Positions 9,901 through 45,463 of a stretch of DNA of 64,000 nucleotides are shown piece by piece. The notes beneath the pieces were generated by a model that was not told where the DNA came from, searched no databases, and was given only the letters and a program-made list of their open reading frames with translations. The position numbers and the translations under genes were made by a program. The stretch comes from an uncultured Clostridia bacterium (GTDB lineage: Bacteria > Bacillota > Clostridia > Christensenellales > DTU072): NCBI GenBank assembly GCA_944331875.1, contig CALVJA010000012.1:638-64637 (forward strand). The letters are read 5' to 3'. Position 1 is the first letter of the stretch. Each line of letters begins with the position of its first letter.

Positions 9901-10770
9901 ATGTACGACGTGATTCTTAATCCCGTTTCCGGCAAAGGAAACAGCATGAAGGCATATATGACGGTGAAAGCCGTACTGGACAAAGCGGGCGTGGAATGGG
10001 CGCTGCACAAGACGGAATACCCCCTGCACGCTACCGAAATCGTCAGAAAATTGAACGAAAAGGAGCACGCCGACGTCATCGTCATGGGCGGCGACGGCAC
10101 TTTGAACGAAGTGTTGAACGGCATAACCGATTTTTCGCGTATAAACCTCGGGATAATCTCCTGCGGCACCGGAAACGATTTTATACGCGCGGCAGGACTT
10201 CCGTCCGATCCCGCCGAGGCAGTGAGGCTCATCCTCGCGGGCAACACGGGCTACGTCGATTTTCTGGAACTACCGATGAGGCGCGCCATGAACTGCGCCG
10301 GAGCGGGAATGGACGTCGACGTCCTCGTCAGATACGCTTCGATGAAGGCGTTCAAAGGTAAAATGAAATACTACGCTTCCCTTATCGACACCCTCATCAA
10401 ATGTAAATTCCACAAAATAGCGCTCGAGGTGGACGGCGTCAGATCGGAAAAATCGGTTTTCATGATAGCCGCGGCGAACGGCACCTGTATCGGCGGCGGC
10501 ATGAAGATAAGCCCCAATTCCGTCACCGACGACGGGAAACTGAACGTCGTTTTGATAAACGAAATGCCCAAAAGAAAGATACTTCCCACCCTCATAAAAT
10601 TTTTGAACGGCGGAAAGCATATAACCTCTCCGTATACCGAGGAGTATCTCGCGGAGCGCGTAAGGATAGAGGTTTTGGACGAGGGTCTTACCGAAGTGGA
10701 CGGCGAGGTCATGAACGAAAAGGTCATCGACTGCAAAATAGTCCCCCACACCCTTATGATTTTCAAATGA
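9901..10770 (+). CDS. Diacylglycerol-kinase-family lipid kinase (YegS/DagK-like)
   Basis: MYDVILNPVSGKG N-terminus and GGDGTLNEV catalytic loop. GGAGGG SD before ATG 9901. The track start at 9844 lacks an SD. Confidence 0.85.
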   Translation: MYDVILNPVSGKGNSMKAYMTVKAVLDKAGVEWALHKTEYPLHATEIVRKLNEKEHADVIVMGGDGTLNEVLNGITDFSRINLGIISCGTGNDFIRAAGLPSDPAEAVRLILAGNTGYVDFLELPMRRAMNCAGAGMDVDVLVRYASMKAFKGKMKYYASLIDTLIKCKFHKIALEVDGVRSEKSVFMIAAANGTCIGGGMKISPNSVTDDGKLNVVLINEMPKRKILPTLIKFLNGGKHITSPYTEEYLAERVRIEVLDEGLTEVDGEVMNEKVIDCKIVPHTLMIFK

Positions 10771-10910
10771 TTTTTTTGCCGAAAAGATGATAATTTAATG
10801 CTTTGACAGGAACATAAAAGCAATGTAATGAAAAATGGTGCATTCGACCGAATGCGCTTTTTTTCATAAGGTGAAAATATATTCGGCAAAAAAATCAATA
10901 CCACCGCTTT
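10768..10910 (+). repeat. 143-bp MITE-like module, copy A
   Basis: 141/143 identical to 20857-20999. 13-bp terminal inverted repeats TTTTTTTGCCGAA/TTCGGCAAAAAAA. An internal TTGACA box is followed ~40 nt later by hairpin GCATTCG-AC-CGAATGC plus GCTTTTTTT. Confidence 0.85.
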
Positions 10911-11835
10911 ACCGCGTCTTTCGGGCTCTTTTTTTCGAAATCTTCGACCCCCGCTTTGGAGACCAAACGGGGGCAGCGTCGGCGCGTATGCTATACGCGC
11001 TGTCCTTGTTTCGAAAAAAATAGCGCAGAAACTCACGGCAAATCGGCGCCAAGTATGCTGTTCGAAGCGATAAAATACACAGTGGACTATATTCTCATGT
11101 CGTGGAAAACACTAGTACAGTCGAACTGCTATTCATGGCGATTGCAATATGGTCTTTAGATTGAAGCCCCGCCCTCCCGCCCTATGTGGGGGTATAGGGA
11201 CATGGTAGGTATGGGCTTTATAATGAAGTAGGCTTTTGTGCTAAAGTGTTATACTGCCTTAAATCAAAAATCTTTTCTAGTGTTTAGCGGGGAAGAATGT
11301 GGAAAACTCCGATTTCGCGTATAGTTTTTCCCTTTCCCGTAATACACAAAGTTTATTATTCCTTTAACAGCATATCCCCAAGCCATTTCAACGGGGGAGG
11401 CGCGCGAAGCTTTAGCGGAGCACTTATTCGCCGGGGGTGAAGCGTAAGCGTAACCCCCTCCGATTACATGGCTTGGAAGGTTCAAAGTTTGTTTTCCTTT
11501 TCGTCTGTAATAGTGCCTTTATGAAAGAAATATACACAATGGGAACAGCGCTCCATACTGCTAAACTCTATGATGGGCAAATAAAACACAAAAGCAAATA
11601 CTACGCCTACAGCCGTAGATTTTCGGGTGATTTTTCGTGAACAAAATATCGGCATACGATGTATGCCGACATTTTTTCGCGGAAAAGGACCGAAAAGATA
11701 CGGGAAAGGAATGTTTAAGTTCTTTAATATTTTTTATATCGGAGCGTAGCGACCCTGAACAAAATCCGCGGACAAAAGCAAGAGTGGATATGATGTTTTT
11801 TTTATTTGAGCATTCTATAAAACTCTTAGCGGATT

Positions 11836-12011
11836 TTATTTCACAAATCGACACTTCGGAAAGTTGATTTAACTTCATAAATTTATAGTGTCGATTTATT
11901 TCACAACGCGCCCGTTACGGCTCTACTTCCTACCCTCGGGCGCGTTATTTCACAATTCCGCTTGCGGAATTATTTCACTTTTTTTGCGGCGGTTTCGCCG
12001 CCACAAAAAAA
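11836..12011 (+). repeat. TTATTTCACAA-punctuated hairpin array A
   Basis: TTATTTCAC(AA) at 11836, 11896, 11945 and 11970. Each is followed by a hairpin: ATCGACAC..GTGTCGAT; CGCGCCC..GGGCGCG; TTCCG-CTTG-CGGAA; T7-GCGGCGG-TTTC-GCCGCCAC-A7. Confidence 0.8.
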
Positions 12012-12038: not shown

Positions 12039-12962
12039 TCAGTCGTTTTCGAGGAGTTTGTTTTTGAACGCCGCTTTGCGGGCGTTGGCTGAAAGGATCT
12101 CTCTTTCCTCCGCGGTTATGGCTAAAAGTTCGTATTCGCGCCTGAGGGTGGTGGCGGAAACGGCGGTGTTGTCGGTATTCAGTGTGACCGCTACGCCCTG
12201 TGCCATGAGCCGCCTTAGCGGATATTCGCCCCCTTTCCATGCGCCCGTTTGCAGATTCGAGGTGTAACAGAGTTCAAGCGTTACCCCCTCCGATATTATG
12301 CGGCGCAGCGTTTCCGGGTCCTCCACAGCCCTTACGCCGTGCCCCAGGCGCTTTGTACCCATATCAAGCGCCGCGCGGACGGACTCCGCGCCGCCTGCCT
12401 CGCCCGCGTGTATCGTAAACGGTATGCCCTTTTCGCGCGCACGGTCGAATATATATTTATACTCCTCGGTCGGGAAACGCCCCTCGTCGCCCGCAAGATC
12501 TATCGCGACTATTCCGGAGGCGGTTTTTACATATTCCTCTGCAAGCCTGAGCGTTTCGAGGTTCGCATCCCGTTCCCCGCCGCGCATACAACACAAAATT
12601 ATCCCTATCGGAAAACCCCTCTCGAAAGATCTTTTAGCGGCGAAAGAAGCCGCGGAAACTATCTCGCTTTGCGTTGCGCCCGTATCGGTACTGAGCGACG
12701 GCGCAAAGCGTATCTCGGCGTATTCCAGCCCTTCCTTTTCGAGCCTTTCAGCAAGGAGCATTATCGCATGATATACCGATTCGGGTGACTGCAAAAGCGA
12801 TAACGGGAGCCTGAAACGCTCTAGATATGCTTTAAGTCCGCCCTCGGGATCGGGCGGCGAGGACGGATACGTCACCCGCGTTTTCGCATTTTGTTTTGCC
12901 GCCAGCGCGTTTAATTCTCTTTCCCCCAGCGAGCCGTCCAGATGTATATGCAGGTCTATCAT
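12039..12962 (-). CDS. add: Adenosine deaminase
   Basis: 307 aa. Metal-site blocks IDLHIHLDG, FTIHAGE and LNTDN. Overlaps the punA stop. Confidence 0.85.
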   Translation of the reverse strand: MIDLHIHLDGSLGERELNALAAKQNAKTRVTYPSSPPDPEGGLKAYLERFRLPLSLLQSPESVYHAIMLLAERLEKEGLEYAEIRFAPSLSTDTGATQSEIVSAASFAAKRSFERGFPIGIILCCMRGGERDANLETLRLAEEYVKTASGIVAIDLAGDEGRFPTEEYKYIFDRAREKGIPFTIHAGEAGGAESVRAALDMGTKRLGHGVRAVEDPETLRRIISEGVTLELCYTSNLQTGAWKGGEYPLRRLMAQGVAVTLNTDNTAVSATTLRREYELLAITAEEREILSANARKAAFKNKLLEND

Positions 12963-20043: not shown

Positions 20044-20081
20044 TTTTCAGTCCTCCTGTAGTTGATTGGCGGCGCGCCCCG

Positions 20082-20453
20082 TTATTTGGGGGTCTTTGCG
20101 CCATACTTGGATCTTGCCTGCTTGCGCTTTGCAACGCCCGCAGTGTCCAGCGTTCCGCGTATGATATGATAACGCACGCCGGGCAGATCCCTGACTCTTC
20201 CGCCTCTGATGAGCACGACGGAGTGCTCCTGCAGATTGTGGCCCTCGCCGGGAATGTAGATGGTTCCTTCCATTCCGTTTACGAGACGTACCCTTGCAAT
20301 CTTTCTGACCGCGGAATTAGGCTTTTTGGGAGTGGTCGTCGTGACCGAAAGGCAAACGCCCCTCTTTTGCGGGCAGCCGTCCATGATAGGAGTCAAGGAC
20401 TTTTTGGTCTGACGCTTCCTTCCCTGCCTGATGAGTTGGTTGGTAGTTGGCAT
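20082..20453 (-). CDS. rpsL: 30S ribosomal protein S12
   Basis: 123 aa. [20 protein letters not shown]. Confidence 0.97.
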
Positions 20454-20514
20454 TATGGTCCTCCTTTTGTTCCGTCCGCTTTCAACCCAACAGCGAACCT
20501 TCTACAGTAAAACT

Positions 20515-20766
20515 TTACCCGATTATCCCTACCGCCGCCGACGCGACGTCGATGCCCGCTGCGCGCCCCAGTTCCTCCTTGGAAGGGACGAACACCGCCT
20601 CGACTCCCGCCAAACGGCATTGAGATACGAGTTCCAGCTTTATATGCTCCTCGGCGTCCTCGGCGATCAGCACACACCTTATCCGACCGTCGCGGAAACC
20701 GCGCATTATTTGTCTTGATCCGATAACCTTTTCCCGCGCCAGAAGCGCCTCGGCTTTACGGTCCAT
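20515..20766 (-). CDS. L7Ae-family ribosome-associated protein (YbxF/RplGB-like)
   Basis: 83 aa from ATG 20766, preceded by AGGAGAAATA. Lies upstream of rpsL as in Bacillus. The track start at 20808 lacks an SD. Confidence 0.75.
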   Translation of the reverse strand: MDRKAEALLAREKVIGSRQIMRGFRDGRIRCVLIAEDAEEHIKLELVSQCRLAGVEAVFVPSKEELGRAAGIDVASAAVGIIG

Positions 20767-20816
20767 TATTTCTCCTGCAACACAGAAATAAGCCTGCTGT
20801 CTCCGCAAGCTTTGTC

Positions 20817-20845: not shown

Positions 20846-20856
20846 GCATTTACCAT

Positions 20857-20999
20857 TGATTTTTTTGCCGAAAAGATGATAATTTAATGCTTTGACAGGA
20901 ACTTAAAAGCAATGCAATGAAAAATGGTGCATTCGACCGAATGCGCTTTTTTTCATAAGGTGAAAATATATTCGGCAAAAAAATCAATACCACCGCTTT
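20857..20999 (+). repeat. 143-bp MITE-like module, copy B
   Basis: 141/143 identical to 10768-10910, with the same TIRs, TTGACA box and hairpin/T-tract. Confidence 0.85.
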
Positions 21000-21632
21000 G
21001 CGCCTCTTTTCCGCCGTATCGCACGAAATTACTTAAAGCCTTTAATATCACCCCGTTTTGGAGACCAAAACGGGGCGCGGACGGCGCATAGTCCCGCTAT
21101 AGCGCCGCCCGCGTTTCTTGCGATACGACGCAAAATAGTCTGCAAATCGGTGCCGAGTATGCTTTCCAATGCGCCAAAATACACAGTGAACTAAACACTC
21201 TCAACGTAGCGAAAAAATACAAAGTGAACTATACACGCTCTACTTGGCAACAAAATACATAGTGGACTGCATTCTTCTTTCATGCAAAACACTAATGCAA
21301 GCAAACTGCTGTTCATGGCTAAAGCAAATCGGTGCCGAGTATGCTTTCCAATGCGCCAAAATACACAGTGAACTATACACGCTCTACTTGGCGACAAAAT
21401 ACACGCCTACAGCCGTAGATTTTCGGGGGATTTTTCGTGAACAAAATGGCGGCATACGATGTATGCCGATATTTTTTCGCGAAAAAGGACCGAAAAGATA
21501 CGGGGACTAAAGTATATAGTTGATATATGACTCTTCAATCTAACGACCGCAACAAAATTCGAAACTTTTTGCTTGAACGGGGGAGTGTATATCTTTTTGC
21601 TTGTGCGAGGATATAAAAGTGCGGTTCGAATT

Positions 21633-21768
21633 TTATTTCACAAATTGAAACTTTGCCCGCGAAGTTTCAATTTATTTCACAACGCGCGCCCATGGGGCGC
21701 GCGTTATTTCACAATTCCGCTTGCGGAATTATATCACCGTTTTTGCGGCGACAACGTCGCCGCAAAAA
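21633..21768 (+). repeat. TTATTTCACAA-punctuated hairpin array B
   Basis: Motif at 21633, 21672 and 21704, plus the TTATATCAC variant at 21729. Hairpins: ATTGAAACTT..AAGTTTCAAT; CGCGCGCCC-ATG-GGGCGCGCG; TTCCG-CTTG-CGGAA; GTTTTTGCGGCGA-CAAC-GTCGCCGCAAAAAC. Confidence 0.8.
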
Positions 21769-21769
21769 C

Positions 21770-22420
21770 TCACCCTCCCTGTTTTATCTTCGTGTCGAGT
21801 ACATGGCGGGCGGCGAGTTCTTTGAATACGTCTTTGGGTTCGATACCCATTTCCACCATCATGACCATGGCGTGGTAATAAAGGTCGGCAAGTTCGTATA
21901 TCGCCGCTTCCTTGTTCCCCGCTTTCCCTTCGATGATGACTTCGGTGGATTCCTCGCCCACTTTTTTCAGTATCTTGTCTATCCCCTTATTAAATAGGTA
22001 TGTGGTGTAGCTGCCTTCTTTCGGGGAAGTCTTTCTCCCCTTTATGAGTTCGTAAAGCCCTTCTATCGAAAAAGGCTTCATGTCCTTACCTACGAACAGC
22101 GTTCTGTAAAAACAGCTTTCGTTTCCCGTGTGGCAGGCGGGGCCGTCCTTTATGACCTCGGCTACGAGCGAGTCGCCGTCGCAGTCGAGGCGCATTTCGA
22201 CTACGTGCTGGAAGTTTCCGCTCGTTTCGCCCTTTGTCCAGAGCGTCTTCCTCGAGCGGGAATAAAGGCAGGTGACTCCCTTTTCGAGGGTCGCTTTCAG
22301 GCTTTCCTCGTTCATGTACGCGAGCATCAGCACCTGTTTCGAGTAGTAGTCCTGCACGACGCAGGGCACCAGCCCTTTTTCGTCGAATTTTACTTTGGAT
22401 AAAATATCTGCCGCTATCAT
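21770..22420 (-). CDS. hisIE: Bifunctional phosphoribosyl-AMP cyclohydrolase / phosphoribosyl-ATP pyrophosphatase
   Basis: 216 aa from ATG 22420, overlapping the hisF stop. LVPCVVQD and CHTGNESCF (HisI) plus a C-terminal HisE helical part. The track extension to 22606 runs inside hisF. Confidence 0.9.
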   Translation of the reverse strand: MIAADILSKVKFDEKGLVPCVVQDYYSKQVLMLAYMNEESLKATLEKGVTCLYSRSRKTLWTKGETSGNFQHVVEMRLDCDGDSLVAEVIKDGPACHTGNESCFYRTLFVGKDMKPFSIEGLYELIKGRKTSPKEGSYTTYLFNKGIDKILKKVGEESTEVIIEGKAGNKEAAIYELADLYYHAMVMMVEMGIEPKDVFKELAARHVLDTKIKQGG

Positions 22421-23175
22421 ATTCTTACCTCCACGCCCCGAGTGCGGAGCCTTTGCTTTATATCGGATATAGACACTTCGCCGAAGTGGAAAATGCTCGC
22501 CGCAAGCGCCGCGTCCACGCGGGGCACCTTGTCGAAAAGCTCCTCGAAGTGCTCTATCTTCCCCGCGCCGCCGGAAGCTACGACGGGCACGTCCACCGCG
22601 CTGCATACGGCGTCAAGCATCTCTATGTCGAAGCCGTCCTTGACGCCGTCGGTGTCGATGCTGTTCAACACTATCTCGCCCGCGCCGAGGCTTTGTCCCT
22701 TTTTCGCCCAGGAGACCGCCTCGAGCTCCGTTTCCTCCCTGCCGCCGCGCGCGAAAACTTTGAATATCCCGTTCACACGCTTTACGTCCATGGAAAGCAC
22801 CACGCACTGGTCGCCGTATTTTTTTGCCGCGGCGGTTATGACGGAGGGGTCGCGTATCGCGCCCGTATTGACGGACACCTTGTCCGCACCGCTTTTCAGC
22901 ACGCGGTCGAAGTCCTCGACGGTGTTTATGCCGCCGCCCACGGTAAGCGGGATGAATATCTCGCGCGCCACTTCGCTTAAAACCGACGTGAACAGTTTTC
23001 TTCCCTCGTTCGAGGCGGTGATGTCGTAAAATACAAGCTCGTCCGCGTTCTCCGCGTTGTATCTGCGGGCAAGCTCCACAGGGCTTTCGACGTCGCGGAT
23101 ACCGACGAAATTTTTGCCTTTGACCACTCTGCCGTCGCGCACGTCAAGACATGGTATTATACGTTTAGCTATCAT
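22417..23175 (-). CDS. hisF: Imidazole glycerol phosphate synthase cyclase subunit
   Basis: 252 aa. RIIPCLDVRDGRVVKG. his operon order. Confidence 0.95.
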   Translation of the reverse strand: MIAKRIIPCLDVRDGRVVKGKNFVGIRDVESPVELARRYNAENADELVFYDITASNEGRKLFTSVLSEVAREIFIPLTVGGGINTVEDFDRVLKSGADKVSVNTGAIRDPSVITAAAKKYGDQCVVLSMDVKRVNGIFKVFARGGREETELEAVSWAKKGQSLGAGEIVLNSIDTDGVKDGFDIEMLDAVCSAVDVPVVASGGAGKIEHFEELFDKVPRVDAALAASIFHFGEVSISDIKQRLRTRGVEVRI

Positions 23176-37210: not shown

Positions 37211-38427
37211 TATAGCTCCTCCTTCGCTTTCGTTTCGTCGGTGAAGACGATCTCGCCATCTATCATCGTCAATATGTTGTACCCCGTCATGCGTCTCCCG
37301 ATGAAGGGGGAATTTTTGGCTTTTCCTCTTATCTCTTCCGCGGTATATTCGCGGTAAGAAGCGGTATCCAACGCGATGATCTCCGCCTTTTGACCTATAT
37401 CCAAAACGCCCGAGGGGATACCGAAGCGCTTCGCGGGCAATACGCTCGTAAGCTCCGAAAGCCTATCTATACCTATCACTCCACGCTCGACGAGTTCCGT
37501 CACGCACACCGAAAAAAGCGTCTCGAAACCTATTATCCCGTTCGGAGCCGCAGCGTATGCGACCGCCTTTTCGTGTGCCGCGTGCGGCGCGTGGTCGGTC
37601 GCTATCATGTCCGCGGTGCCGTCCGCGACCGCCTCGACGACCGCTTCCCTGTCAGCGGGTGACATAAGCGGCGGATTCATCTTCCAGTTTGCGTCCCGTA
37701 TCATCGTTTCGTCCAGGGCGATATGGTGCGGCGTGACCTCGATGCTCACGTCAAGCCCTTCGCGCTTCGCCCGGCGTATGACGTCCAGACTCTTTTTTGT
37801 GGATATATGGCAGAAGTGATACCTGACGCCCGTCTTTTTGACAAGCTCCGTTTCCTCGGAAACGGCGCGGTATTCCGCTTCCGCCGCGCTTCCCGCTCCC
37901 CGCCGCTCCGCGTGGGAGGCGATGATGCCGCCGCATTCTTTTACGCGGCGCATACCCTCTTCCAGAAGCTTGAGGTCGTTTACGCAAACGCCGTCGTCGC
38001 TGAACGCTTTCACGCGTTTCGACAGTGCCTCTATGTCCGAAAGGCACTCGCCTTTTTCTCCCTTTGTGAGCGAAGCGTACGGGTATACGAAGACCTTCGC
38101 GTTATTTTTTATGAGTTTCTCCTCGACCTCCAGGTTTTCCTCCGAATCCGGCACGGGTTTTAGGTTCGGCATCGCCATAACGCGCGTTATGCCGCCTTTT
38201 GCCGCGCTTTCGGTAGCCGAAAGTATCGTTTCCTTGTATTCGTATCCCGGTTCCCTAAGGTGCGCGTGGACGTCCACGGCGCCGGGGAGAACGGTGGCGC
38301 CGCCTAGATCTATGACGCGCTCCGCCCCGCTTTTATTCCCGTTAAACGAAGTGATGACGCCGTCCGTTATGAAAAGGGACGTCAGTCCTTTCCCCGGTAT
38401 GAAAGCGTTTTCGAGAAGCGTTTTCAA
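37210..38427 (-). CDS. pyrC: Dihydroorotase
   Basis: 405 aa. VDVHAHLREPG HxH metal motif. Confidence 0.92.
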   Translation of the reverse strand: MKTLLENAFIPGKGLTSLFITDGVITSFNGNKSGAERVIDLGGATVLPGAVDVHAHLREPGYEYKETILSATESAAKGGITRVMAMPNLKPVPDSEENLEVEEKLIKNNAKVFVYPYASLTKGEKGECLSDIEALSKRVKAFSDDGVCVNDLKLLEEGMRRVKECGGIIASHAERRGAGSAAEAEYRAVSEETELVKKTGVRYHFCHISTKKSLDVIRRAKREGLDVSIEVTPHHIALDETMIRDANWKMNPPLMSPADREAVVEAVADGTADMIATDHAPHAAHEKAVAYAAAPNGIIGFETLFSVCVTELVERGVIGIDRLSELTSVLPAKRFGIPSGVLDIGQKAEIIALDTASYREYTAEEIRGKAKNSPFIGRRMTGYNILTMIDGEIVFTDETKAKEEL

Positions 38428-39302
38428 AGTTTGCCCTCCAGCGCCAGCGTCAGCACCGCCATGCGGACGTAGACGCCGTTTTCCATCTGTTTATATATCC
38501 TCGATTTTTCGCATTCGGCGACTTCGCTCGCTATCTCTATGCCGCGGTTTATCGGCGCGGGGTGCATGATGATGGCGTTTTTCTTCATCTTCGCCACCCT
38601 CTCCACCGTAAGCCCGTAGCGGCGGAAGTATTCCTCTTTCGTGATGTTCATCGCCTGCTCGTGCCTTTCGAACTGCACCCGAAGAAGATTTATTATATCC
38701 ATTTTTTCGACCGCTTCGTCCAAAGGCATGTATTCGCCCGTTTTATCGGACAGCTGCTCGGGTCCCGATACATAGACTTTCATCCCCAGCCTTTTCATGA
38801 CCTCGGAATTACCGTGCGCCACGCGGGAGTGGGATATATCGCCCACCATCGCTATCTTGAGCCCCTCGAACGCGCCGTATTCCTCGTATATGGTCATCAG
38901 ATCCAAAAGCGTCTGCGTGGGGTGGTCGGACGTGCCGTCGCCGCCGTTGAAAATTGGTATTTTTATGGTTTCGAGATCCTTGTAATAAACGTCTTTGGTG
39001 TGTCTTATCACCACGCCGTCCACGCCGAGAGATTCGAACGTTCTGACCGTATCGTACAGCGTTTCGCCCTTTTGTACGCTGGACGACGCCAGATTGAACG
39101 AAAGCGGTGTGATACCGAGATTTATCATCGCTATCTGGAAGCTGTATTGCGTTCTGGTGGAGTTCTCATAAAAAAGGTTGACCATTTTCTTCCCGGGGAA
39201 GTTGATTGACCAACCTTTTTTGAAACGAATAGCAAGCTCTATGATGTCCATTATCTCGGGCGAGGACAGCGTCCTCAAAGTCAGAAGACCTCTCATAAAC
39301 AC
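38424..39302 (-). CDS. pyrB: Aspartate carbamoyltransferase catalytic subunit
   Basis: 292 aa. ENSTRTQYSF and SDHPTQTLLD signature blocks. Confidence 0.95.
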   Translation of the reverse strand: MFMRGLLTLRTLSSPEIMDIIELAIRFKKGWSINFPGKKMVNLFYENSTRTQYSFQIAMINLGITPLSFNLASSSVQKGETLYDTVRTFESLGVDGVVIRHTKDVYYKDLETIKIPIFNGGDGTSDHPTQTLLDLMTIYEEYGAFEGLKIAMVGDISHSRVAHGNSEVMKRLGMKVYVSGPEQLSDKTGEYMPLDEAVEKMDIINLLRVQFERHEQAMNITKEEYFRRYGLTVERVAKMKKNAIIMHPAPINRGIEIASEVAECEKSRIYKQMENGVYVRMAVLTLALEGKL

Positions 39303-39333
39303 CTCTTTTGAACGTTAAAATTTTATCTTTCCG

Positions 39334-39362
39334 ATTATACCAAATACCCGCGCCAAAGTAAA
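39334..39362 (-). promoter_or_regulatory. Sigma-A-type (extended -10) promoter of the pyr operon
   Basis: Minus strand TTTACT-17 nt-(TGg)TATAAT. The leader is ~25 nt to the AAGAGG SD. Confidence 0.6.
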
Positions 39363-39394
39363 GCGTTTTCCGCCCCAAACGGACTTGAGTTTCA

Positions 39395-39700
39395 TTTTTA
39401 GCCTTTCGGCTAAAAGTGATATGCACGTTCCGTGCGTGATATTTTCAGCCCGAGGGCTGAAAGTTACCTTAACTTCTCCCAACGGGAGAAATATCACTCT
39501 GCGAAGCAGAATATCACTTGACGAAGTCAAATATCACTTTGCGAAGCAAAATATAACTTGAGTGTTTAAGTGATATTTTTTAGCCTATCGGCTAAAAAGT
39601 GATATGCACGTTCCGTGCGTGATATTTTGCCCTAAAGGGTCAAAGTTATATTTTCAGCCTTGCGGCTGAAAGCTTTTTCAGCAGTCCGGCTGAATAGAAG
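39395..39700. repeat. ATATCAC/GTGATAT-punctuated mini-hairpin array with a 4 x 20-bp iteron-like core
   Basis: GTGATAT at 39416, 39436, 39570, 39599 and 39619. ATATCAC at 39491, 39511 and 39531. Degenerate ATATAAC at 39551 and GTTATAT at 39645. 12 or more hairpins lie between the motifs. See findings. Confidence 0.85.
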
Positions 39701-39768
39701 CAAGCGAGACAAGGCTCGCACCCTTTCTAGCGTGCTCTGACCGGATAGAAACGAGCTAGACGAGGCTC

Positions 39769-39826
39769 GAAAACGCCGCGGGACAGGAGTTTAGTAAAAC
39801 CTAAATGACTGTTCCGCGGCGTTTTC
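39769..39826 (+). repeat. Long-stem hairpin element, copy 2 (possible terminator after the 878-aa protein gene)
   Basis: 18-bp stem GAAAACGCCGCGGGACAG/CTGTTCCGCGGCGTTTTC around GAGTTTAGTAAAACCTAAATGA. Same architecture as 19417-19473. Confidence 0.8.
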
Positions 39827-39848
39827 AGTAAACGAAGTATAGCGAAGT

Positions 39849-42485
39849 TTATATCCGGTCAGAGCCGGTGAGACGATCATAGAGGGTTTGATCGTTGGGA
39901 ATTTGGTCGCCCGGTTCGATGAGGGGCGGACCGGAGGTAAAGTCGGCGCAGATGAGGAAGCAGTCGTGGTTGATGGTGAGTCCGTCGACGAGCATACTGG
40001 CAATGTTTGCGATGGCGCGTATGGTATCGCTGTCGGCGATGGCGAGGTCGGCTATGCGCATACCGGTCTCGGGAGCCACGGTGACGCCGGTAAGGTCGTA
40101 GGAGCACATGAGCCCGAGGCCGAAGCCCGCTATCGAAACGTACTCCGCGCCACCGTAATTATAGATCAACCCGTCGAAAGCGCCTGCGGCAAACATTTCG
40201 TTTACGGCGGTTGCGAAAGGTCCGTCCAGAAGAGAGCTCGCCGCCTGCAGCGCGGGTACCATGGTATAGACGGTCGTGGTCAGAATGTTGTAGACTTCGT
40301 CCGTCGTTTTCCAGTTATACACGTCCATTATCCCTTCTATCGTGATATTGGGGATTATGTTACGATTCATGTTGTTGGCGTCTATGACGCGCGGGACGAT
40401 CTGTACCGATGCGCCGTAACTCATCTTGAAGACGTTGTTGCGCAGCGTGACGTGGCAGTTTTTGGCGTCCTCTCTGTAATATCCGAGCTCTATGCCGGAG
40501 GTGTAGTTATCGCCCAGAATGCAGCCTTCTATCGTCAGGTCGCCGACGGAGTGCGCCTGCAGTCCGCGGGTAGTATTATAGATCTGGCAGTAGCGGTATG
40601 TGACGGAACTGTTCCTTACATCGCGCGCACGAATAAGATGGGAGGTCTTTCCCGCGTCGTCCAGAGTCAACGCGCCGCGCATGACGATGTCCTCGAATAC
40701 GAAACCGTCCGTATAGACCTCGCCCGCATACTCCTGCCCCTCGGCAAAGTGCGTGCCGCCGTTGATCTCGAAAACGAATTCGGTGGACTGCGACTCGGTC
40801 GGTCTGTGCGCCGAAAAGTCGAAGAGGAATCCGTTTCCGTATATGCTGGAGCGCATGGTTTTCGCTCTGACGTCGTTGGTGGCGTATGCGTCGCCCTGCA
40901 TAACGATGTCGTGACTGCCGAGGTCTATCGCGCTCAGCACGTCCTCGAAATCGTAGGTGTTGAACGCAGGAAGTTTATGGAAGCGGAAAGTAAAGCTTCT
41001 TCTGACGTCTACGGGACGGTTGTTTACCATCAGCGTCGCGGTCAGTGTCACGTTCTTCCCGAGCGCCCGGACGGGATCGACGGTAATCAGAGCGGCTTGA
41101 GAGCCTTCCTCTTTCGCCACGCTCACGGGCTGCACGGCGCCCTCTTCGAGCCCCTCCGTGGACACGCTCCACCTGACGTCGAAGGAATTCGAGTCGCCCA
41201 CTATCCCCAGGCGGAAAGTGTTCGTGGGTTCGTTGTTTTCGTTAAGCCACTCCGTCCCCCATATCCTCGACATTTGGATGCCGCGGGCGGCGTCGGCGGT
41301 GGTAAGTTCCAGCGTGAACGATACCGGTCGTTCGCGCACGGTGACGATCTTGGATACCGTATGTCCGTTGTATTCGGCAGTCAGAGTGACCACCCCGGCT
41401 TTTACCGGTTTTAACTCGAAACCTTTACCGCCCGATATCGTTTCGACAATTTCCACGCCGAGAACGTCGGTATCGTCCGAAACCAGCGTCAGAGATTCGT
41501 CCTCTATCGCTTCTCCGGAGATCAAGTATCCGAACGTCGCATAATAGGGACCGTTCTGCGTATATATCGTGGTGAGTCCGTCGGTAAATCCCCATTCGTC
41601 CTCGGCGCAGTAGATAACGCCTATCTCCACGGTGGTGAGCTCTCCGCCGGAGACGATCTCCACGGCATAGCGGTCGTCGGACAGCCTTTCGATGCCTGAT
41701 ACGGATACGTCATCGCCCGTGACGACGTTCATTCTGATCAGCTCGTCTATATCCCGAATACCGTCCGCCACGTAGATCTCGGTCTTCTTGACCAAAGCCT
41801 CGGAAGTGTCCACATAGACGGTCCTGCGATGATGGTTGCCTTCGCGGTCGGTCGCCGCCAGCGTGACCGTGGTAATGCCGCGGGATACAGGCGTCACTGT
41901 GCCGTTCACGGAAACGGAAACTATACCGGAATTTCCGCTTATCCACTCCACGTTGGATTCGTGGAGCGCCGCCATCGGGTTTATGTCGTAATAAAACTGC
42001 TCCGTGGTCTTCAGGGAGTAGACGGCGCTTTCCGCTATCTCCGCGCCCTCGCCGTTATAGATGTCGATGGAAGCTATTTCGGTCGTGGTCACGTAAAAAT
42101 GCAGGGTGAATACAACGTTGATGTTCTTTGACGCACGGATGATGAGATCGGTCGCGCCCATCTCGAGAGCGCGTATACGGTAACGGTTCGTCCCTTCTAT
42201 CGGCACGAGCTCCACGGAACCGGAACCCGCCCCCTCGTCGCGTTCCTGCAGAATGCTTTTATCGGGCGTCATGGACGGATAGACTTCGATAATCAGAAAG
42301 TCTTCGGTATTTATATCGACCGTTATCAGTTCGCCCGCGGCGATCTCCTCGTTACGGGAATTTTTAACGACGATGCTCTCCGGATTGACCGGAGTCGTCA
42401 GCAAAATGATATTCGACGTCACGCTGAGCGCCAGTACAGCCACTATCGGTATTATACAGATCACGGCTATCAGAAATTTTTTCAT
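39849..42485 (-). CDS. Signal-anchored surface protein with Big_2 (Ig-like) repeats and a C-terminal beta-helix-like region, paralog 1
   Basis: 878 aa. N-terminus MKKFLIAVICIIPIVAVLALSVTS. Big_2-like block NVEWISGNSGIVSVSVNGTVTPVSRGITTVTLAAT. The C-terminal half has PbH1-like strands (IYGNGFLFDF, LTIEGCILGDN, VTLRNNVFKM). Confidence 0.75.
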   Translation of the reverse strand: MKKFLIAVICIIPIVAVLALSVTSNIILLTTPVNPESIVVKNSRNEEIAAGELITVDINTEDFLIIEVYPSMTPDKSILQERDEGAGSGSVELVPIEGTNRYRIRALEMGATDLIIRASKNINVVFTLHFYVTTTEIASIDIYNGEGAEIAESAVYSLKTTEQFYYDINPMAALHESNVEWISGNSGIVSVSVNGTVTPVSRGITTVTLAATDREGNHHRRTVYVDTSEALVKKTEIYVADGIRDIDELIRMNVVTGDDVSVSGIERLSDDRYAVEIVSGGELTTVEIGVIYCAEDEWGFTDGLTTIYTQNGPYYATFGYLISGEAIEDESLTLVSDDTDVLGVEIVETISGGKGFELKPVKAGVVTLTAEYNGHTVSKIVTVRERPVSFTLELTTADAARGIQMSRIWGTEWLNENNEPTNTFRLGIVGDSNSFDVRWSVSTEGLEEGAVQPVSVAKEEGSQAALITVDPVRALGKNVTLTATLMVNNRPVDVRRSFTFRFHKLPAFNTYDFEDVLSAIDLGSHDIVMQGDAYATNDVRAKTMRSSIYGNGFLFDFSAHRPTESQSTEFVFEINGGTHFAEGQEYAGEVYTDGFVFEDIVMRGALTLDDAGKTSHLIRARDVRNSSVTYRYCQIYNTTRGLQAHSVGDLTIEGCILGDNYTSGIELGYYREDAKNCHVTLRNNVFKMSYGASVQIVPRVIDANNMNRNIIPNITIEGIMDVYNWKTTDEVYNILTTTVYTMVPALQAASSLLDGPFATAVNEMFAAGAFDGLIYNYGGAEYVSIAGFGLGLMCSYDLTGVTVAPETGMRIADLAIADSDTIRAIANIASMLVDGLTINHDCFLICADFTSGPPLIEPGDQIPNDQTLYDRLTGSDRI

Positions 42486-42547
42486 AGCTTTCTTTAATTT
42501 ATCTCCGTTGTCATTAGTTTTTCACAAATCCGCCGCCACACCATGCG

Positions 42548-45463
42548 TCACCGAGTATATTTCGCCCACGGAGCAGCCTCTCCTCTAGACGCCGTGAGCT
42601 TATCGTACAGCGCGTCGTTTGCGGGCACCGGGTCGCCCGGTTCTATTTCGGACATACCGGACGAGAAGTTGTTACACAATATCATGCATGTGTTGGACGC
42701 CGTGCTGAAGCCGTTGAGTTTCATAGTTCTGACGAGGTCTTCTATTGCTTGGAGATTTGAGGGAATGCTGCCGTCGGCGTACCTCATCATCATTTTGATG
42801 ATCTCCACGTCCGACGACGTCGCTTCCGATATACGCACCCTGTCGAAATCCCATCCGTATACGCAGCCCATGCCGAACATGCCGAGCCCTATATATTGGT
42901 CGCCGGCGTACGAGTAGTACAGGTTGTCGTTTTCGGAAATGCCCAAAAATTCGTTCACCACCCTTTCGAGATAGCTGTCCAGAAGCGTAGTGACCAAAGT
43001 TTCGAATTGCTCTCCGGCGACCATAACCAAATAATAAGCGATGAGATCTTTTACGCTTTTATAAAAAGTATCTTTCGTCATCCAGTTGTATATATCCAAA
43101 GAGCCCTCGACATACAGGTTGGGCGCCACCGAATAGTCGCCCCAATTATAGTTGTAACCGCCGGGCATGCCCGTACCGGAGAAGACCACGGCGGGACCGG
43201 AGCTCATTTTGAACACGTTGTTGCGGAAGGTGAGGTTGTACCCGGGGCGGCGGTCGTCGGTATAAGTATTCGGCGCCGACGAGACCACATTGCGCCCGGA
43301 ATCGAATTCGTAGATGTAGTTCGAGTACCTTCTGAGCGGTTCCATATGATAGACCGTGAGCACGGAATGCTTGAAGTTGTCGCCCAGTATGCAGCCCTCT
43401 ATAAGCACGTCGTTGACGCGGTCGATATGGATACCGCGCTCGGAATTGTATACCTCGCAGTATTTTATCGACATGGGCGGGTCGCGCGGCACGTTCGCGT
43501 TTATCGCCGGCTCGTTGTAGAATCCCAGAGTATAACCGATCACGCCGAAGCTGCCGTCGGCTTCCTCCAGCGTTTCGGCGCCGCGTATTTTAAGGTTGTA
43601 CACGGTAAATTCCGATATGCCGAGCTCTTCCATTTTGTCCAGCATTATCTCTTTCGAGGGCGTAGCCCCGCCGAAATACGTACTTCTGAGCCTGTTGTAT
43701 ATGTCCTCCCAGCGGTACCTGAGGGCTGAATCTCCGTTCGTCGGCACATCGACCGCCGCCGCGTCGTACAGGAAACCGTTGCCGTATACGGAGCCCGTCA
43801 TGCTCGAGAACATCCTGTCCGCGGCAATATCGGACTGCAGCACATAATCGTACGTCGGATAAGAATCGTAGACGGCGGCGAAATCCCCGGCGTCGTATAC
43901 GTTCACCGAATTCTGTTTTTCGAGCATGGAGAACACGAAACTTCTCTGCATACTCTCCACCACTCTTCCCTGCATATACAGTTTCGCGGTCACTCTGACG
44001 TCTTTACCCGCCGCCGCTTCGGTGAACGTGATGTACACGTCCGAGGTGGAATCGTACGCCGGAGTAAGTTCCGCGAGCTCGGGATCGTTCACGAACCAGC
44101 GCACCTCGAACGCGCCCGTATCGTTTTTCAGACCGAAACGCATCGTCCGACTCAATCCTCCCTCCTCATCGAGCCAATAATTACCCCAATAGCGGTCGCG
44201 CGCTATGCCGCGCTCGGTGTCGGTCATCTGGAGCATAAGGTCGAACGCGACGGGACGCTCTTTTACCGTAAAAGACGCGGATACGCTCTCGCCGCCGTAC
44301 GTCAGCGTGACGGTCGCCGTGCCCGCTTTCAGCGGAATGAGACGCGAAGTTTCCGCGTCCACCCCCAAAACGTCGGGAGCATCGCTCGACGCGGCGAATC
44401 CCGTCGCGATCCTTTCACCGCTCGTATAATCGAACACGGTGAACGGATACGCGCCGTTTCCGGAATATATCGTTTCGTCCATGGCGCCGAAGCCCCAGCC
44501 CGTATCGGAGTAGCGCACCTCGACGTCGACCGAGTATATGCCCGAAGTGACTCTGAACAGCCTTACCGTGCCCTGAGCGCCGCCTGAAACGGCGATCTCG
44601 GAGACTTCGGCTTCCGGGTCGAGGAGTTCGGTTTCGTTGAGCCACGCGGCGATTTCGCGTTCCGTCGAACCGAACAGCGCCTCGTCCGTGACGAACACCG
44701 TCGTATCCGACACCAGCGCTCCGGAAAGATCGACCGTGAACGAAGCCGTAAACTGTTTGCCCGCTCCGTCGTAGGCGGTGGCGGTTATCTGCACTCTCTC
44801 GTCGGTGCGCTGCATCGGAGTGACCAGCCCCGTTTCGTCCACCGTCGCGAGCTCGGGATCGGAGGACTGCCAGATTATATCGTTATCGAGCGACGTATAC
44901 GCGCTGTGCGGCTCCGCCGCGGTATAAAAGCGCTCCGCTCCGACAAGCTTTATCTCGCCCGAGTATTGCGTTTCGTTTTTCGTCGCGTACGCTATCGGTT
45001 TATCGGGGTCGTCGCCCGTATCGGTATATATCTCGAAGCGGTCTATTTCCTTCGTCGTGACGTTGAAAGTGACCGTTTTGTACACGTCTCTTGCGGACGC
45101 GGCGCGTATCGTCAGCTTGGCGACTCCCGCGGATACGGGCACTATCGTGTAGCGGTCGGAGGAACCGTCCCGCTTTTCGAGCTCTACTCTGCCGCTCATG
45201 CCCTCTTCGGACGCGTCTTCGTAGACTATCTCTTTGTCCCTGACGAAAGAGGGAAGGATCTCTATCACCAAAAACTCGTCCGTTTCAGCGACGTCGATAT
45301 CGACGACCTCGTCCGAACCAAGCTCCACGTTCGAGGAATTTTTGATGATCAAGTCGCTCGCGTTGGGGCTCGTCGCGGACAATATGAGCGAACTCGTGAC
45401 GCTCAATGCCAGCACGACTATGACGGGGATTATGCAGATGACGGCTATCAGAAATTTTTTCAT
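42548..45463 (-). CDS. Signal-anchored surface protein with Big_2 repeats and a C-terminal beta-helix-like region, paralog 2
   Basis: 971 aa. N-terminus MKKFLIAVICIIPVIVVLALSVTS. Big_2-like block IIWQSSDPELATVDETGLVTP. VYGNGFLYDA, LIEGCILGDN, LTFRNNVFKM. The C-terminal tail is shared with paralog 1. Confidence 0.75.
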   Translation of the reverse strand: MKKFLIAVICIIPVIVVLALSVTSSLILSATSPNASDLIIKNSSNVELGSDEVVDIDVAETDEFLVIEILPSFVRDKEIVYEDASEEGMSGRVELEKRDGSSDRYTIVPVSAGVAKLTIRAASARDVYKTVTFNVTTKEIDRFEIYTDTGDDPDKPIAYATKNETQYSGEIKLVGAERFYTAAEPHSAYTSLDNDIIWQSSDPELATVDETGLVTPMQRTDERVQITATAYDGAGKQFTASFTVDLSGALVSDTTVFVTDEALFGSTEREIAAWLNETELLDPEAEVSEIAVSGGAQGTVRLFRVTSGIYSVDVEVRYSDTGWGFGAMDETIYSGNGAYPFTVFDYTSGERIATGFAASSDAPDVLGVDAETSRLIPLKAGTATVTLTYGGESVSASFTVKERPVAFDLMLQMTDTERGIARDRYWGNYWLDEEGGLSRTMRFGLKNDTGAFEVRWFVNDPELAELTPAYDSTSDVYITFTEAAAGKDVRVTAKLYMQGRVVESMQRSFVFSMLEKQNSVNVYDAGDFAAVYDSYPTYDYVLQSDIAADRMFSSMTGSVYGNGFLYDAAAVDVPTNGDSALRYRWEDIYNRLRSTYFGGATPSKEIMLDKMEELGISEFTVYNLKIRGAETLEEADGSFGVIGYTLGFYNEPAINANVPRDPPMSIKYCEVYNSERGIHIDRVNDVLIEGCILGDNFKHSVLTVYHMEPLRRYSNYIYEFDSGRNVVSSAPNTYTDDRRPGYNLTFRNNVFKMSSGPAVVFSGTGMPGGYNYNWGDYSVAPNLYVEGSLDIYNWMTKDTFYKSVKDLIAYYLVMVAGEQFETLVTTLLDSYLERVVNEFLGISENDNLYYSYAGDQYIGLGMFGMGCVYGWDFDRVRISEATSSDVEIIKMMMRYADGSIPSNLQAIEDLVRTMKLNGFSTASNTCMILCNNFSSGMSEIEPGDPVPANDALYDKLTASRGEAAPWAKYTR

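Follow-up and report, generated by a model that had tools for sequence, protein, structure and literature searches.

The Gut-1 motif (Rfam RF01706, "Gut-1 RNA") was described by Weinberg et al. in 2010 from human gut metagenomes only, with 43 representatives, and was rated "Y" for RNA and "n" for cis-regulatory, with neither a function nor a host assigned (PMC2864571); this is the only paper found in the literature that mentions either Gut-1 or RF01706. Other described systems with which it can be compared are repetitive extragenic palindromes (REPs), whose head is GT(A/G)G (PMC2817692), DNA mini-hairpins with GNA or GNNA loops, which are far more stable than their RNA versions (PMC13037366), and the PF05635 protein family, which resembles Avd, the accessory protein of diversity-generating retroelements (DGRs) (PMC10053308). 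The locus considered here is a hairpin array in the gap (39303-39848) between the stop codon of a gene for an 878-aa protein and the pyrB-pyrC-carA-carB cluster, in a stretch of 64,000 nucleotides from an uncultured Clostridia bacterium (contig CALVJA010000012.1; the window hereafter). The core of this array is the known Rfam Gut-1 motif, which had gone unrecognised in the original prediction, made from the sequence alone, and the array as a whole is one copy of the Gut-1 element that stands solo, has been rearranged and varies between strains.

The hairpin array itself is as real and non-random as had been predicted. Three exact 20-bp units and one degenerate unit, each made of ATATCAC plus a 13-nt hairpin, lie at 39491-39557; the hairpins TCTGC-GAA-GCAGA, TTGAC-GAA-GTCAA and TTTGC-GAA-GCAAA all carry the GAA loop on the plus strand (3/3), and the mini-hairpin sequence GCGAAGC is literally present in two of the core units. 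Tandem Repeats Finder assigns the core a period of 20 and 3.7 copies. The 27-mer reported from the flanks is part of a longer exact repeat of 34 nt (39412-45 = 39595-628), and the TTAGCC..GGCTAA and TTTCAGCC..GGCTGAAA hairpins were found in the places predicted for them, while the distance from the stop of the 878-aa gene to the pyrB -35 box, put at ~430 bp, measures ~487 nt. ATATCAC or GTGATAT occurs 25 times in the window versus 5.0 +/- 2.2 times in shuffles, none of 100 shuffles reaching 25, and 8 of the 25 occurrences fall within 210 nt. Both strands fold far better than shuffles (z = -10 to -11.6); folding energy is uninformative as a strand discriminator, since both strands, as RNA or as DNA, are equally extreme.

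The match to RF01706 scores 66.4 bits (threshold 50) at 39486-39559 on the minus strand and covers model positions 1-77 of 77, and the scan of the whole window gave no other match at the gathering threshold. On the minus strand the core shows the tandem hairpins of Gut-1, with GUGAUAU linkers and stems (UUUGC, UUGAC and UCUGC) that are perfectly paired yet different; linker ends (AU..GU) lengthen each stem in the Rfam structure, where only GAA or GAU remains unpaired. In the order of the minus strand, the gap comprises a terminator (39826-39769), two terminator-like hairpins, an array here called F2, the core (R core, starting with GTTATAT), a further array, F1, and the pyrB promoter. On the plus strand the linkers of R core are three ATATCAC and, as the fourth, ATATAAC. 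F1 has GTGATAT at 39416 and 39436 plus a degenerate GTTACCT, and F2 has linkers at 39570, 39599 and 39619 with GTTATAT at 39645; both give sub-threshold Gut-1 matches on the plus strand, F1 of 27.6 bits (39361-39447) and F2 of 37.8 bits (39544-39630).

The array appears, from comparison of loci, to have no pyr-specific regulatory role and to be a dispensable copy of a dispersed element. The original prediction had likened it to iterons or an operator array next to the pyr promoter and had named its absence from close relatives as one of several conditions that together would refute this. Among 78 pyrB loci fetched from metagenomes (PyrB identity 39-82%), the upstream region was read in 22 (PyrB 60-82% identical): none of the 22 has a GTGAWAT array, and several have a PyrR-type leader in its place. 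In a sister strain (L201), whose neighbouring protein is 99% identical and whose gene order is the same, a 183-nt segment with the whole R core is missing and only a Part-B-like array (Part A and Part B being the two halves of the Gut-1 composite, described below) is retained, while the promoter region is essentially unchanged and the -35 and -10 boxes (TTTACT-17-TATAAT, 39362-39334) are identical. Pyr-specific regulation was rejected on the 22 orthologous loci and the sister strain. The ends of the 183-nt segment are ambiguous within the 34-nt direct repeat (39412-45 / 39595-628), and because this repeat bounds the difference, deletion and recombinational insertion are both possible. A third contig with the 878-aa gene (L002) stops 142 nt past the gene, at the array edge, as is typical of a repeat-induced assembly break. 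By arithmetic from contig coordinates, the source contig of the sister strain should end near array B (Table 1). As to leaders, a AGUCCAGAGAGGCU-type leader is common in relatives with PyrB 60-69% identical (the relatives compared being L127-L146), and the pyrB leader in the window (39296-39362) is short and has no PyrR-binding attenuator.

Table 1. Positions in the window of the Gut-1-type arrays and of the features around them.
Feature	Coordinates	Strand	Remarks
Array A, related array, paralogue of array B	11836..12010	-	directly after stop of adenosine-deaminase-like gene 12039-12962
Array B, related array, three hairpins with TTATTTCACAA between, plus one ATATCAC	21633..21770	-	directly after stop of gene 21770-22606
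pyrB (OTCace_N / OTCace), then pyrC, carA, carB	38424..39296	-	
pyrB promoter-like site: TTTACT, 17-nt spacer, TG-extended TATAAT	39334..39362	-	same in sister strain
F1, Part B of the composite of R core, three hairpins	39395..39473	+	ends 26 nt before pyrB -35 box
Strain-variable 183-nt segment: one copy of the 34-nt repeat, whole R core, two flanking hairpins	39446..39628		from alignment; absent in sister strain
R core, Part A of Gut-1 composite, four linkers, four hairpins	39474..39569	-	RF01706 match
F2, Part-B-like array, five hairpins	39570..39694	+	sense (GTGATAT) strand plus; antisense to flanking genes
Two more terminator-like hairpins, ~51 nt apart	39700..39769	-	TTTCTAT or TTCTAT after each
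Probable terminator of 878-aa gene: long inverted repeat, 26-nt arms, 85% complementary	39769..39826		
Upstream gene, 878-aa Big_2 / beta-helix surface-type protein	39849..42485	-	stop codon 39849-51; Pfam marks

The family to which this copy belongs was assembled from the Weinberg seed alignment, where forward-then-inverted arrays are already present at several loci, and from a pattern scan of one genome per species, which gave 120 loci; ~57 of them are genuine hairpin arrays, and nearly all of these come from uncultured Clostridia of the gut (Oscillospiraceae, Acutalibacteraceae, Ruminococcus and Christensenellaceae), plus Akkermansia(ceae). Along the direction of transcription a composite has an invariant order, in which the upstream gene or tRNA comes first, then a terminator, the sense-oriented Part A, the antisense Part B and the -35 box of the next gene. 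The composite starts with a terminator made of an A-run, a GC hairpin and a T-run, followed by "CA", the T-run being present and the motif beginning 2 nt past the T-run hairpin in about 20 of 25 cases. The first linker, next to the terminator, is often degenerate (CGAAAT, GTTATAT or GTGAAAT). Part A has four hairpins with GTGAAAT or GTGATAT between them, each unit being the 7-mer and a perfect mini-hairpin of 13-22 nt, and is closed by a 10-11-nt reverse complement of the tail of the first linker and the 5' arm of the first hairpin; in about 28 of 31 composites this closing repeat is present with 0-2 mismatches, and only on one side. Part B consists of four ATWTCAC linkers and three hairpins, and in many cases its last linker directly adjoins the -35 box that follows. 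Most composites have four inverted linkers and 3-4 detectable forward ones, and lengths vary little (89-96 nt, ~93, for Part A in 24 of 28 composites and ~75-83 nt for Part B). The exact 20-bp phasing that had been claimed holds locally and not for the family, whose unit period is 18-25 bp.

Measured against this anatomy, the window copy is irregular: the canonical T-run and CA were not found before its first unit, which an antisense array precedes instead, and no enclosing inverted repeat was found for R core, the best reverse-complement match having 4-5 mismatches. That its closing repeat has decayed is shown by a homologous composite in MT835718.1 (an unverified faecal "phage" scaffold), whose centre, TTACCTTAACTTCTCTC..GAGAGAAATATCAC, matches window 39465-39497.

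Threshold-level Rfam matches always correspond to Part A, and in nine loci they lie downstream of an adjacent tRNA and on its strand. Arrays of the family are enriched downstream of tRNA genes, with 14 of 60 at <=300 nt from the 3' end of such a gene and 12 tRNA species involved; one follows a 5S rRNA-tRNA cluster. When both flanking genes were called (44 arrays), the gaps were tandem in 34 cases, convergent in eight and divergent in two, and both array polarities occur within one gap. Near-identical array copies are found at different loci; the module is duplicated and reshuffled via recombination between its own repeats, and many copies are solo. Assemblies were also seen to break at arrays, and in one contig (L122, 4262-5190) a near-identical terminator-plus-composite pair flanks a gene for a 134-aa leucine-rich-repeat protein directly after tRNA-Ala, the second composite copy starting with "CCAGAAAAAAGC", an echo of the tRNA 3' end. 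Several further ideas about the family were set aside. Site-specific integration at one tRNA does not fit the twelve tRNA species; a phage origin was dropped, only 2 of 120 pattern matches on viral contigs being true arrays, both resembling host flanks; a search for a plasmid or oriT relation gave no match; and the sequence between the paired arrays in L061 and L021, considered as a possible place for a transposase, holds housekeeping genes only. A "ladder" fold, in which forward linkers pair with inverted ones, is used in the energy minimum, but the variant linkers of Part A are not compensated in Part B.

The composition of stems and loops was examined in 176 non-redundant hairpin units. Stem pairs comprise ~1100 Watson-Crick pairs and 14 G-T pairs, or 24 A-C pairs when these are allowed instead, so that G-U accounts for ~1.3% of stem pairs and is no commoner than A-C. 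The closing pair is 5'C-G3' in 148 units; loops of 3 nt occur in 103 units and loops of 4 nt in 69. In 102 units the loop is T..C as read on the sense strand (TTC 36, TGC 19, TAC 8, TTAC 8, TTGC 7 and others), and on the opposite, ATWTCAC strand these loops read C(GNA)G or C(GNNA)G, the pattern of exceptionally stable DNA mini-hairpins (PMC13037366), GNRA not being favoured. This asymmetry flips together with linker orientation, and the unit is therefore a rigid oriented module. Sequences are diverse, 191 different ones being present among 220 hairpin units in the scanned loci, and the stems of neighbouring units differ. RNA-specific folding signs (one-strand G-U pairs or RNA-type loops) were looked for in these units and not found, the sense loops being UNC or UNNC, and the DNA mini-hairpin d(C-GNA-G) is present in the core and, with G..A loops in 102 of 176 units, in the family. 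Moreover, the arrays follow strong terminators and can have both polarities within a single gap, two points that suit a DNA-level element no less well than a small RNA (sRNA). The original suggestion of single-stranded DNA hairpin sites for HUH-type or other proteins thus stays viable, with indirect support from the C(GNA)G and C(GNNA)G loops and from stems without G-U enrichment.

Array-adjacent open reading frames were clustered to find associated genes. A gene for a four-helix-bundle protein (PF05635/TIGR02436) starts 46-69 nt after Part B in 9 of ~57 loci (L016, L028, L031, L052, L071, L072, L101, L111 and L114). The proteins form two clades that match the linker type, one from six GTGAAAT-type loci and the other from three GTGATAT-type loci, with identities of 63-95% and 75-77% within clades and 50-58% between them. 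In a blind reciprocal look-up with two homologues, which returned 20 loci (L344-L363), the canonical composite stood directly upstream in 7 of 7 loci read. Identical module-plus-gene copies begin right after "CCA", behind different tRNAs or tRNA-3'-like fragments. The family has >8000 close homologues, mostly on contigs <2 kb, which is consistent with assembly breaks. Membership of a defence system was also considered for this protein, and the PADLOC search gave no match.

A second association comes from Akkermansia. A crude Y1-transposase search gave one locus, in a metagenome-assembled genome of Akkermansiaceae, where a REP-associated tyrosine transposase (RAYT; PF01797, 76 bits) lies 220 nt from an array. 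In fuller contigs (L327 1760-2835, L328, and L017 6985-7842) the RAYT gene stands between an upstream 4x GTGAAAT and a downstream 4x ATTTCAC array, the only array-gene-array split in all fetched loci. The same RAYT has 110-nt inner inverted repeats and a 54-nt direct repeat, and the RAYT unit could have inserted into a pre-existing composite. The HUH-site suggestion thus has one RAYT between two inverted half-arrays, in an Akkermansiaceae lineage, to support it; in neither the window nor the Clostridial loci was such a gene found. Akkermansia also has hairpin arrays whose linkers are variants (GGTGAAAA / GGTGAAGA, TTTTTCACAA / TTCTTCACCA and ATATAAC; L327 2860-3200, L338 860-1030 and L009 5900-6030), one of them ~170 nt upstream of its own four-helix-bundle gene.

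Taking together the observed identity, anatomy, polymorphism, genomic associations and loop and stem statistics of the Gut-1 copies, we infer folding at the DNA level, recognition by a protein and any insulating effect; there is about an even chance that the Gut-1 family is a protein-recognised hairpin-repeat module that acts mainly as folded or extruded DNA at transcription-unit boundaries. The unit, a 7-mer with its mini-hairpin, would be recognised when the nucleic acid, DNA more probably than RNA, is single-stranded and folded or is extruded by supercoiling. Its reader would be a dedicated protein, the leading candidate being the Avd-like four-helix-bundle protein and the second, in Akkermansia, the RAYT-type HUH transposase. 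The copy in the window occupies, and possibly insulates, the interval from the terminators of the 878-aa gene to the pyrB promoter. A fuller version is tentative and rather improbable in all its particulars: Gut-1 may be the recognition platform, and not an sRNA, of a hitherto unrecognised small module of gut Clostridia and Akkermansia, made of terminator, 4+4 arrays, promoter and PF05635 gene, that comes to sit behind genes for tRNA and rRNA, leaving numerous solo arrays, its units being read in a linker-type-specific way by the protein or by a RAYT HUH enzyme in single-stranded or extruded DNA.

Several points weigh against a protein-read DNA module. Most copies, including all three in the window, have no four-helix-bundle gene nearby; the link to this gene is an association only, and proteins of the Avd family are RNA binders. 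Two of four Akkermansia RAYT loci have no arrays and one more has variant-linker arrays, and no Y1/HUH transposase was found in the window or in 2.3 Mb of fetched Clostridial carrier sequence, the queries, among them the fetched RAYTs, having given matches in Akkermansia only. The window copy departs from the canonical terminator register and closing repeat, and the 183-nt polymorphism is open to being read as an insertion or as a deletion. Moreover, Part A strictly shares the orientation of the upstream gene and keeps a fixed register to the terminator, which could equally mean a function in read-through RNA; in Firmicutes, gene orientation also tracks replication direction, and in the window GC skew and gene strand are concordant. 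Finally, the authors of the Rfam motif scored it "RNA: yes" from covariation (PMC2864571).

The most probable of the alternatives, though still unlikely, is that Gut-1 acts as RNA, Part A being included in the transcript of the upstream tRNA or gene, or reached by read-through from it, and folding into tandem hairpins as a structured noncoding RNA or 3' trailer. It might, for example, serve the Avd-like four-helix-bundle protein as partner RNA, block exonucleases or back up the terminator. Avd acts together with retroelement RNA, which counts in favour of such a role, as does the likeness of PF05635 to Avd (PMC10053308). The Rfam match, the compensated stems and the "RNA? Y" rating (PMC2864571) point the same way, and so do the polarity of Part A, which is always that of the upstream gene or tRNA, and a conserved U-G closing pair on the sense strand only. 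In addition, sense-strand hairpins followed by GUGAUAUUUU resemble terminators, with seven such sites found in the window against 0.9 expected; yet their tails are of the GAUAUUUU type, and the variant with GUGAAAU is not rich in U. However, with a T-run hairpin 2 nt before the motif in most composites, little transcription should arrive, and a promoter of its own is not evident. The scarcity of G-U pairs speaks against RNA as well, the sense loops UNC and UNNC belong to no stable RNA class while the opposite strand has GNA and GNNA, the inverted Part B would be without a role in the same transcript, and two of the three arrays in the window are antisense to both flanking genes.

An improbable reading, less so than the two that follow it, places the units among REPs and bacterial interspersed mosaic elements (BIMEs), as substrates of a RAYT-type Y1 HUH transposase that cleaves and copies them as single-stranded DNA, the 4+4 composite being a non-autonomous, REPIN-like derivative of a RAYT flanked by inverted arrays. 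The RAYT of L017, L327 and L328 does lie between arrays with outward heads, an organisation published for rayt genes (PMC2817692), and is unique among all loci in this respect; the GTGA head resembles the GT(A/G)G head of REPs, and near-identical copies exist at several loci. Nevertheless, the stem sequences vary from unit to unit, unlike those of REPs; the RAYT has inverted and direct repeats of its own, so it may have inserted into an existing composite; two other Akkermansia RAYT loci are free of arrays; no Y1 transposase was found in the window or in the 2.3 Mb of Clostridial carrier sequence; and a target-site signature is undefined.

It is more doubtful still that the arrays have no function and are by-products of slippage between 7-10-nt linkers and of template-switch "correction" of quasi-palindromes, tolerated in non-essential gaps between terminator and promoter. 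In favour are the indel between strains, which has a 34-nt repeat at its bounds, stems that are perfectly Watson-Crick paired and free of wobble, and the confinement of the arrays to intergenic gaps. Against it, the 7-mer, the 4+4 layout, the length of Part A and the closing repeat are kept across Clostridia families and Akkermansia, the asymmetry between loop strands is strong, and the link to a protein family is tight and type-matched.

Least probable, and for pyr largely refuted, is the original proposal that double-stranded iterons, or a multi-site operator, control the pyr promoter or replication through a protein bound every two helical turns: the local period of exactly 20 bp, the place upstream of the pyrB promoter and the canonical last linker abutting the -35 box of the next gene, often one for a small nucleic-acid-binding-type protein (which makes operator-like autoregulation of that gene conceivable), speak for it, but orthologous pyr loci have no array, the core is missing in the sister strain next to identical -35 and -10 boxes, the 20-bp phase is not conserved, like arrays stand in unrelated intergenic gaps of many genomes, no replication genes or origin features are nearby, neither a PyrR element nor any known RNA element other than Gut-1 was found in the Rfam scan of the window, and binding to double-stranded DNA leaves the perfect, variable palindromes between the sites unexplained.

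Gut-1-type arrays occur at three loci in the window, the other two being arrays A and B (Table 1), with sub-threshold Gut-1 matches on the minus strand of 25.3 bits for A and 38.9 bits for B. The claim that the same motif recurs at 11836 and 21633 was right as to related arrays, but the linker there is mostly ATTTCAC, with one ATATCAC. For a strain comparison of arrays A and B, the exact proteins were on record only in the source scaffold. Around them, two long intergenic regions (~1.3 kb and ~0.9 kb) are paralogous in blocks of 78% (10759-11089 vs 20848-21193) and 94.5% identity (11596-11704 vs 21397-21504), the latter block, of 109 nt, being an imperfect palindrome of ~95 nt around a CGGCATACGATGTATGCCG hairpin. 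At A the region lies between convergent genes, and no gene was called in it; its Rfam matches are weak and all below threshold. At 21176-21268 there is a tandem repeat of 38 nt (AAAATACAAAGTGAACTAAACACGCTCAACGTAGCAAA, 2.4 copies), and an 80-nt segment occurs twice, 182 nt apart (21142-21221 vs 21324-21403, 92.5% identical); both repeats sit, within 21142-21403, between gene 21770-22606 and genes at 20061-20790, which, read by eye, we take to be ribosomal-protein genes.

On the other side of the pyr-locus array, the terminator of the 878-aa gene lies inside a 19-nt inverted repeat (39734-39752 / 39847-39865; arms 95% complementary) that also overlaps the stop codon of this gene, and a hairpin pair at 51-nt spacing (39685-39769) follows. 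The 878-aa gene adjoins a paralogous large gene of 971 aa (both Big_2 / beta-helix; 39849-45463 for the pair), the two having similar 5' ends (42417-42485 vs 45395-45463, 78% identical). This pair is kept in the sister strain and in relatives that are 66-69% identical, in which the downstream gene is not pyrB.

For the pyr locus the result is deflationary, the array being neither a pyr regulator nor a set of iterons, and the significance of the analysis rests mainly on the leads at the level of the family. An orphan Rfam motif becomes testable through its polar 4+4 architecture, its place at transcription-unit boundaries, its DNA-type hairpins and its links to proteins. If the protein-read DNA module is real, two orphan families, the stand-alone "23S rRNA intervening-sequence" proteins and the Gut-1 motif itself, would for the first time have a function; if the link between them is functional, it would explain both a very abundant protein family of gut Firmicutes and a repeat class that fragments metagenome assemblies.

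Among known systems, the BOX elements of Streptococcus pneumoniae and the Correia elements of Neisseria are also modular, structured, multi-copy intergenic repeats with a variable number of modules and possible terminator or promoter functions, but they are unrelated to Gut-1 in sequence and their modules have ~45-60 nt and are not mini-hairpins punctuated by a 7-mer. The G4/ssiA primase sites and the promoters of the N4 virion RNA polymerase are hairpin sites on single-stranded or extruded DNA (PMC13037366); they are single sites with a known enzyme, whereas Gut-1 has eight or more units in stereotyped arrays and only a candidate reader. The proteins of 23S rRNA intervening sequences and the Avd of DGRs (PMC10053308) offer the likeness of a small Avd-like gene next to hairpin-rich insertions at or inside stable-RNA genes, although the Gut-1-linked gene comes after tRNA genes and not inside 23S rRNA, and no reverse transcriptase is nearby; the window holds no gene of this family. 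With REPs, BIMEs and RAYTs (PMC2817692, PMC3116915, PMC5581495), Gut-1 shares extragenic palindromes with a conserved 5' head, here GTGAWAT, that occur in both orientations, after genes and in rearrangement-prone places, and in Akkermansiaceae one rayt gene was seen to be flanked by inverted arrays; within one genome REPs keep their stem sequence, but Gut-1 keeps only the 7-nt head, REP units alternate whereas those of Gut-1 are four direct and four inverted, and RAYTs were not found in Clostridial carriers of Gut-1. The closest system is RF01706 itself. Its published form is an sRNA, whereas the statistics given here fit DNA hairpins at least as well, and the window copy differs from it in having no terminator register or closing repeat and in being flanked by two extra arrays of opposite polarity; nevertheless, the full 77-position model is matched above threshold, the tandem short hairpins with GUGAAAU or GUGAUAU are the same, and the seed has a YYYYYCA prefix. 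In their 5-7-bp stems, C-G closing pair and GNA or GNNA loops, the units also resemble the DNA mini-hairpins d(GCGNAGC) and d(GCGNNAGC) (PMC13037366).

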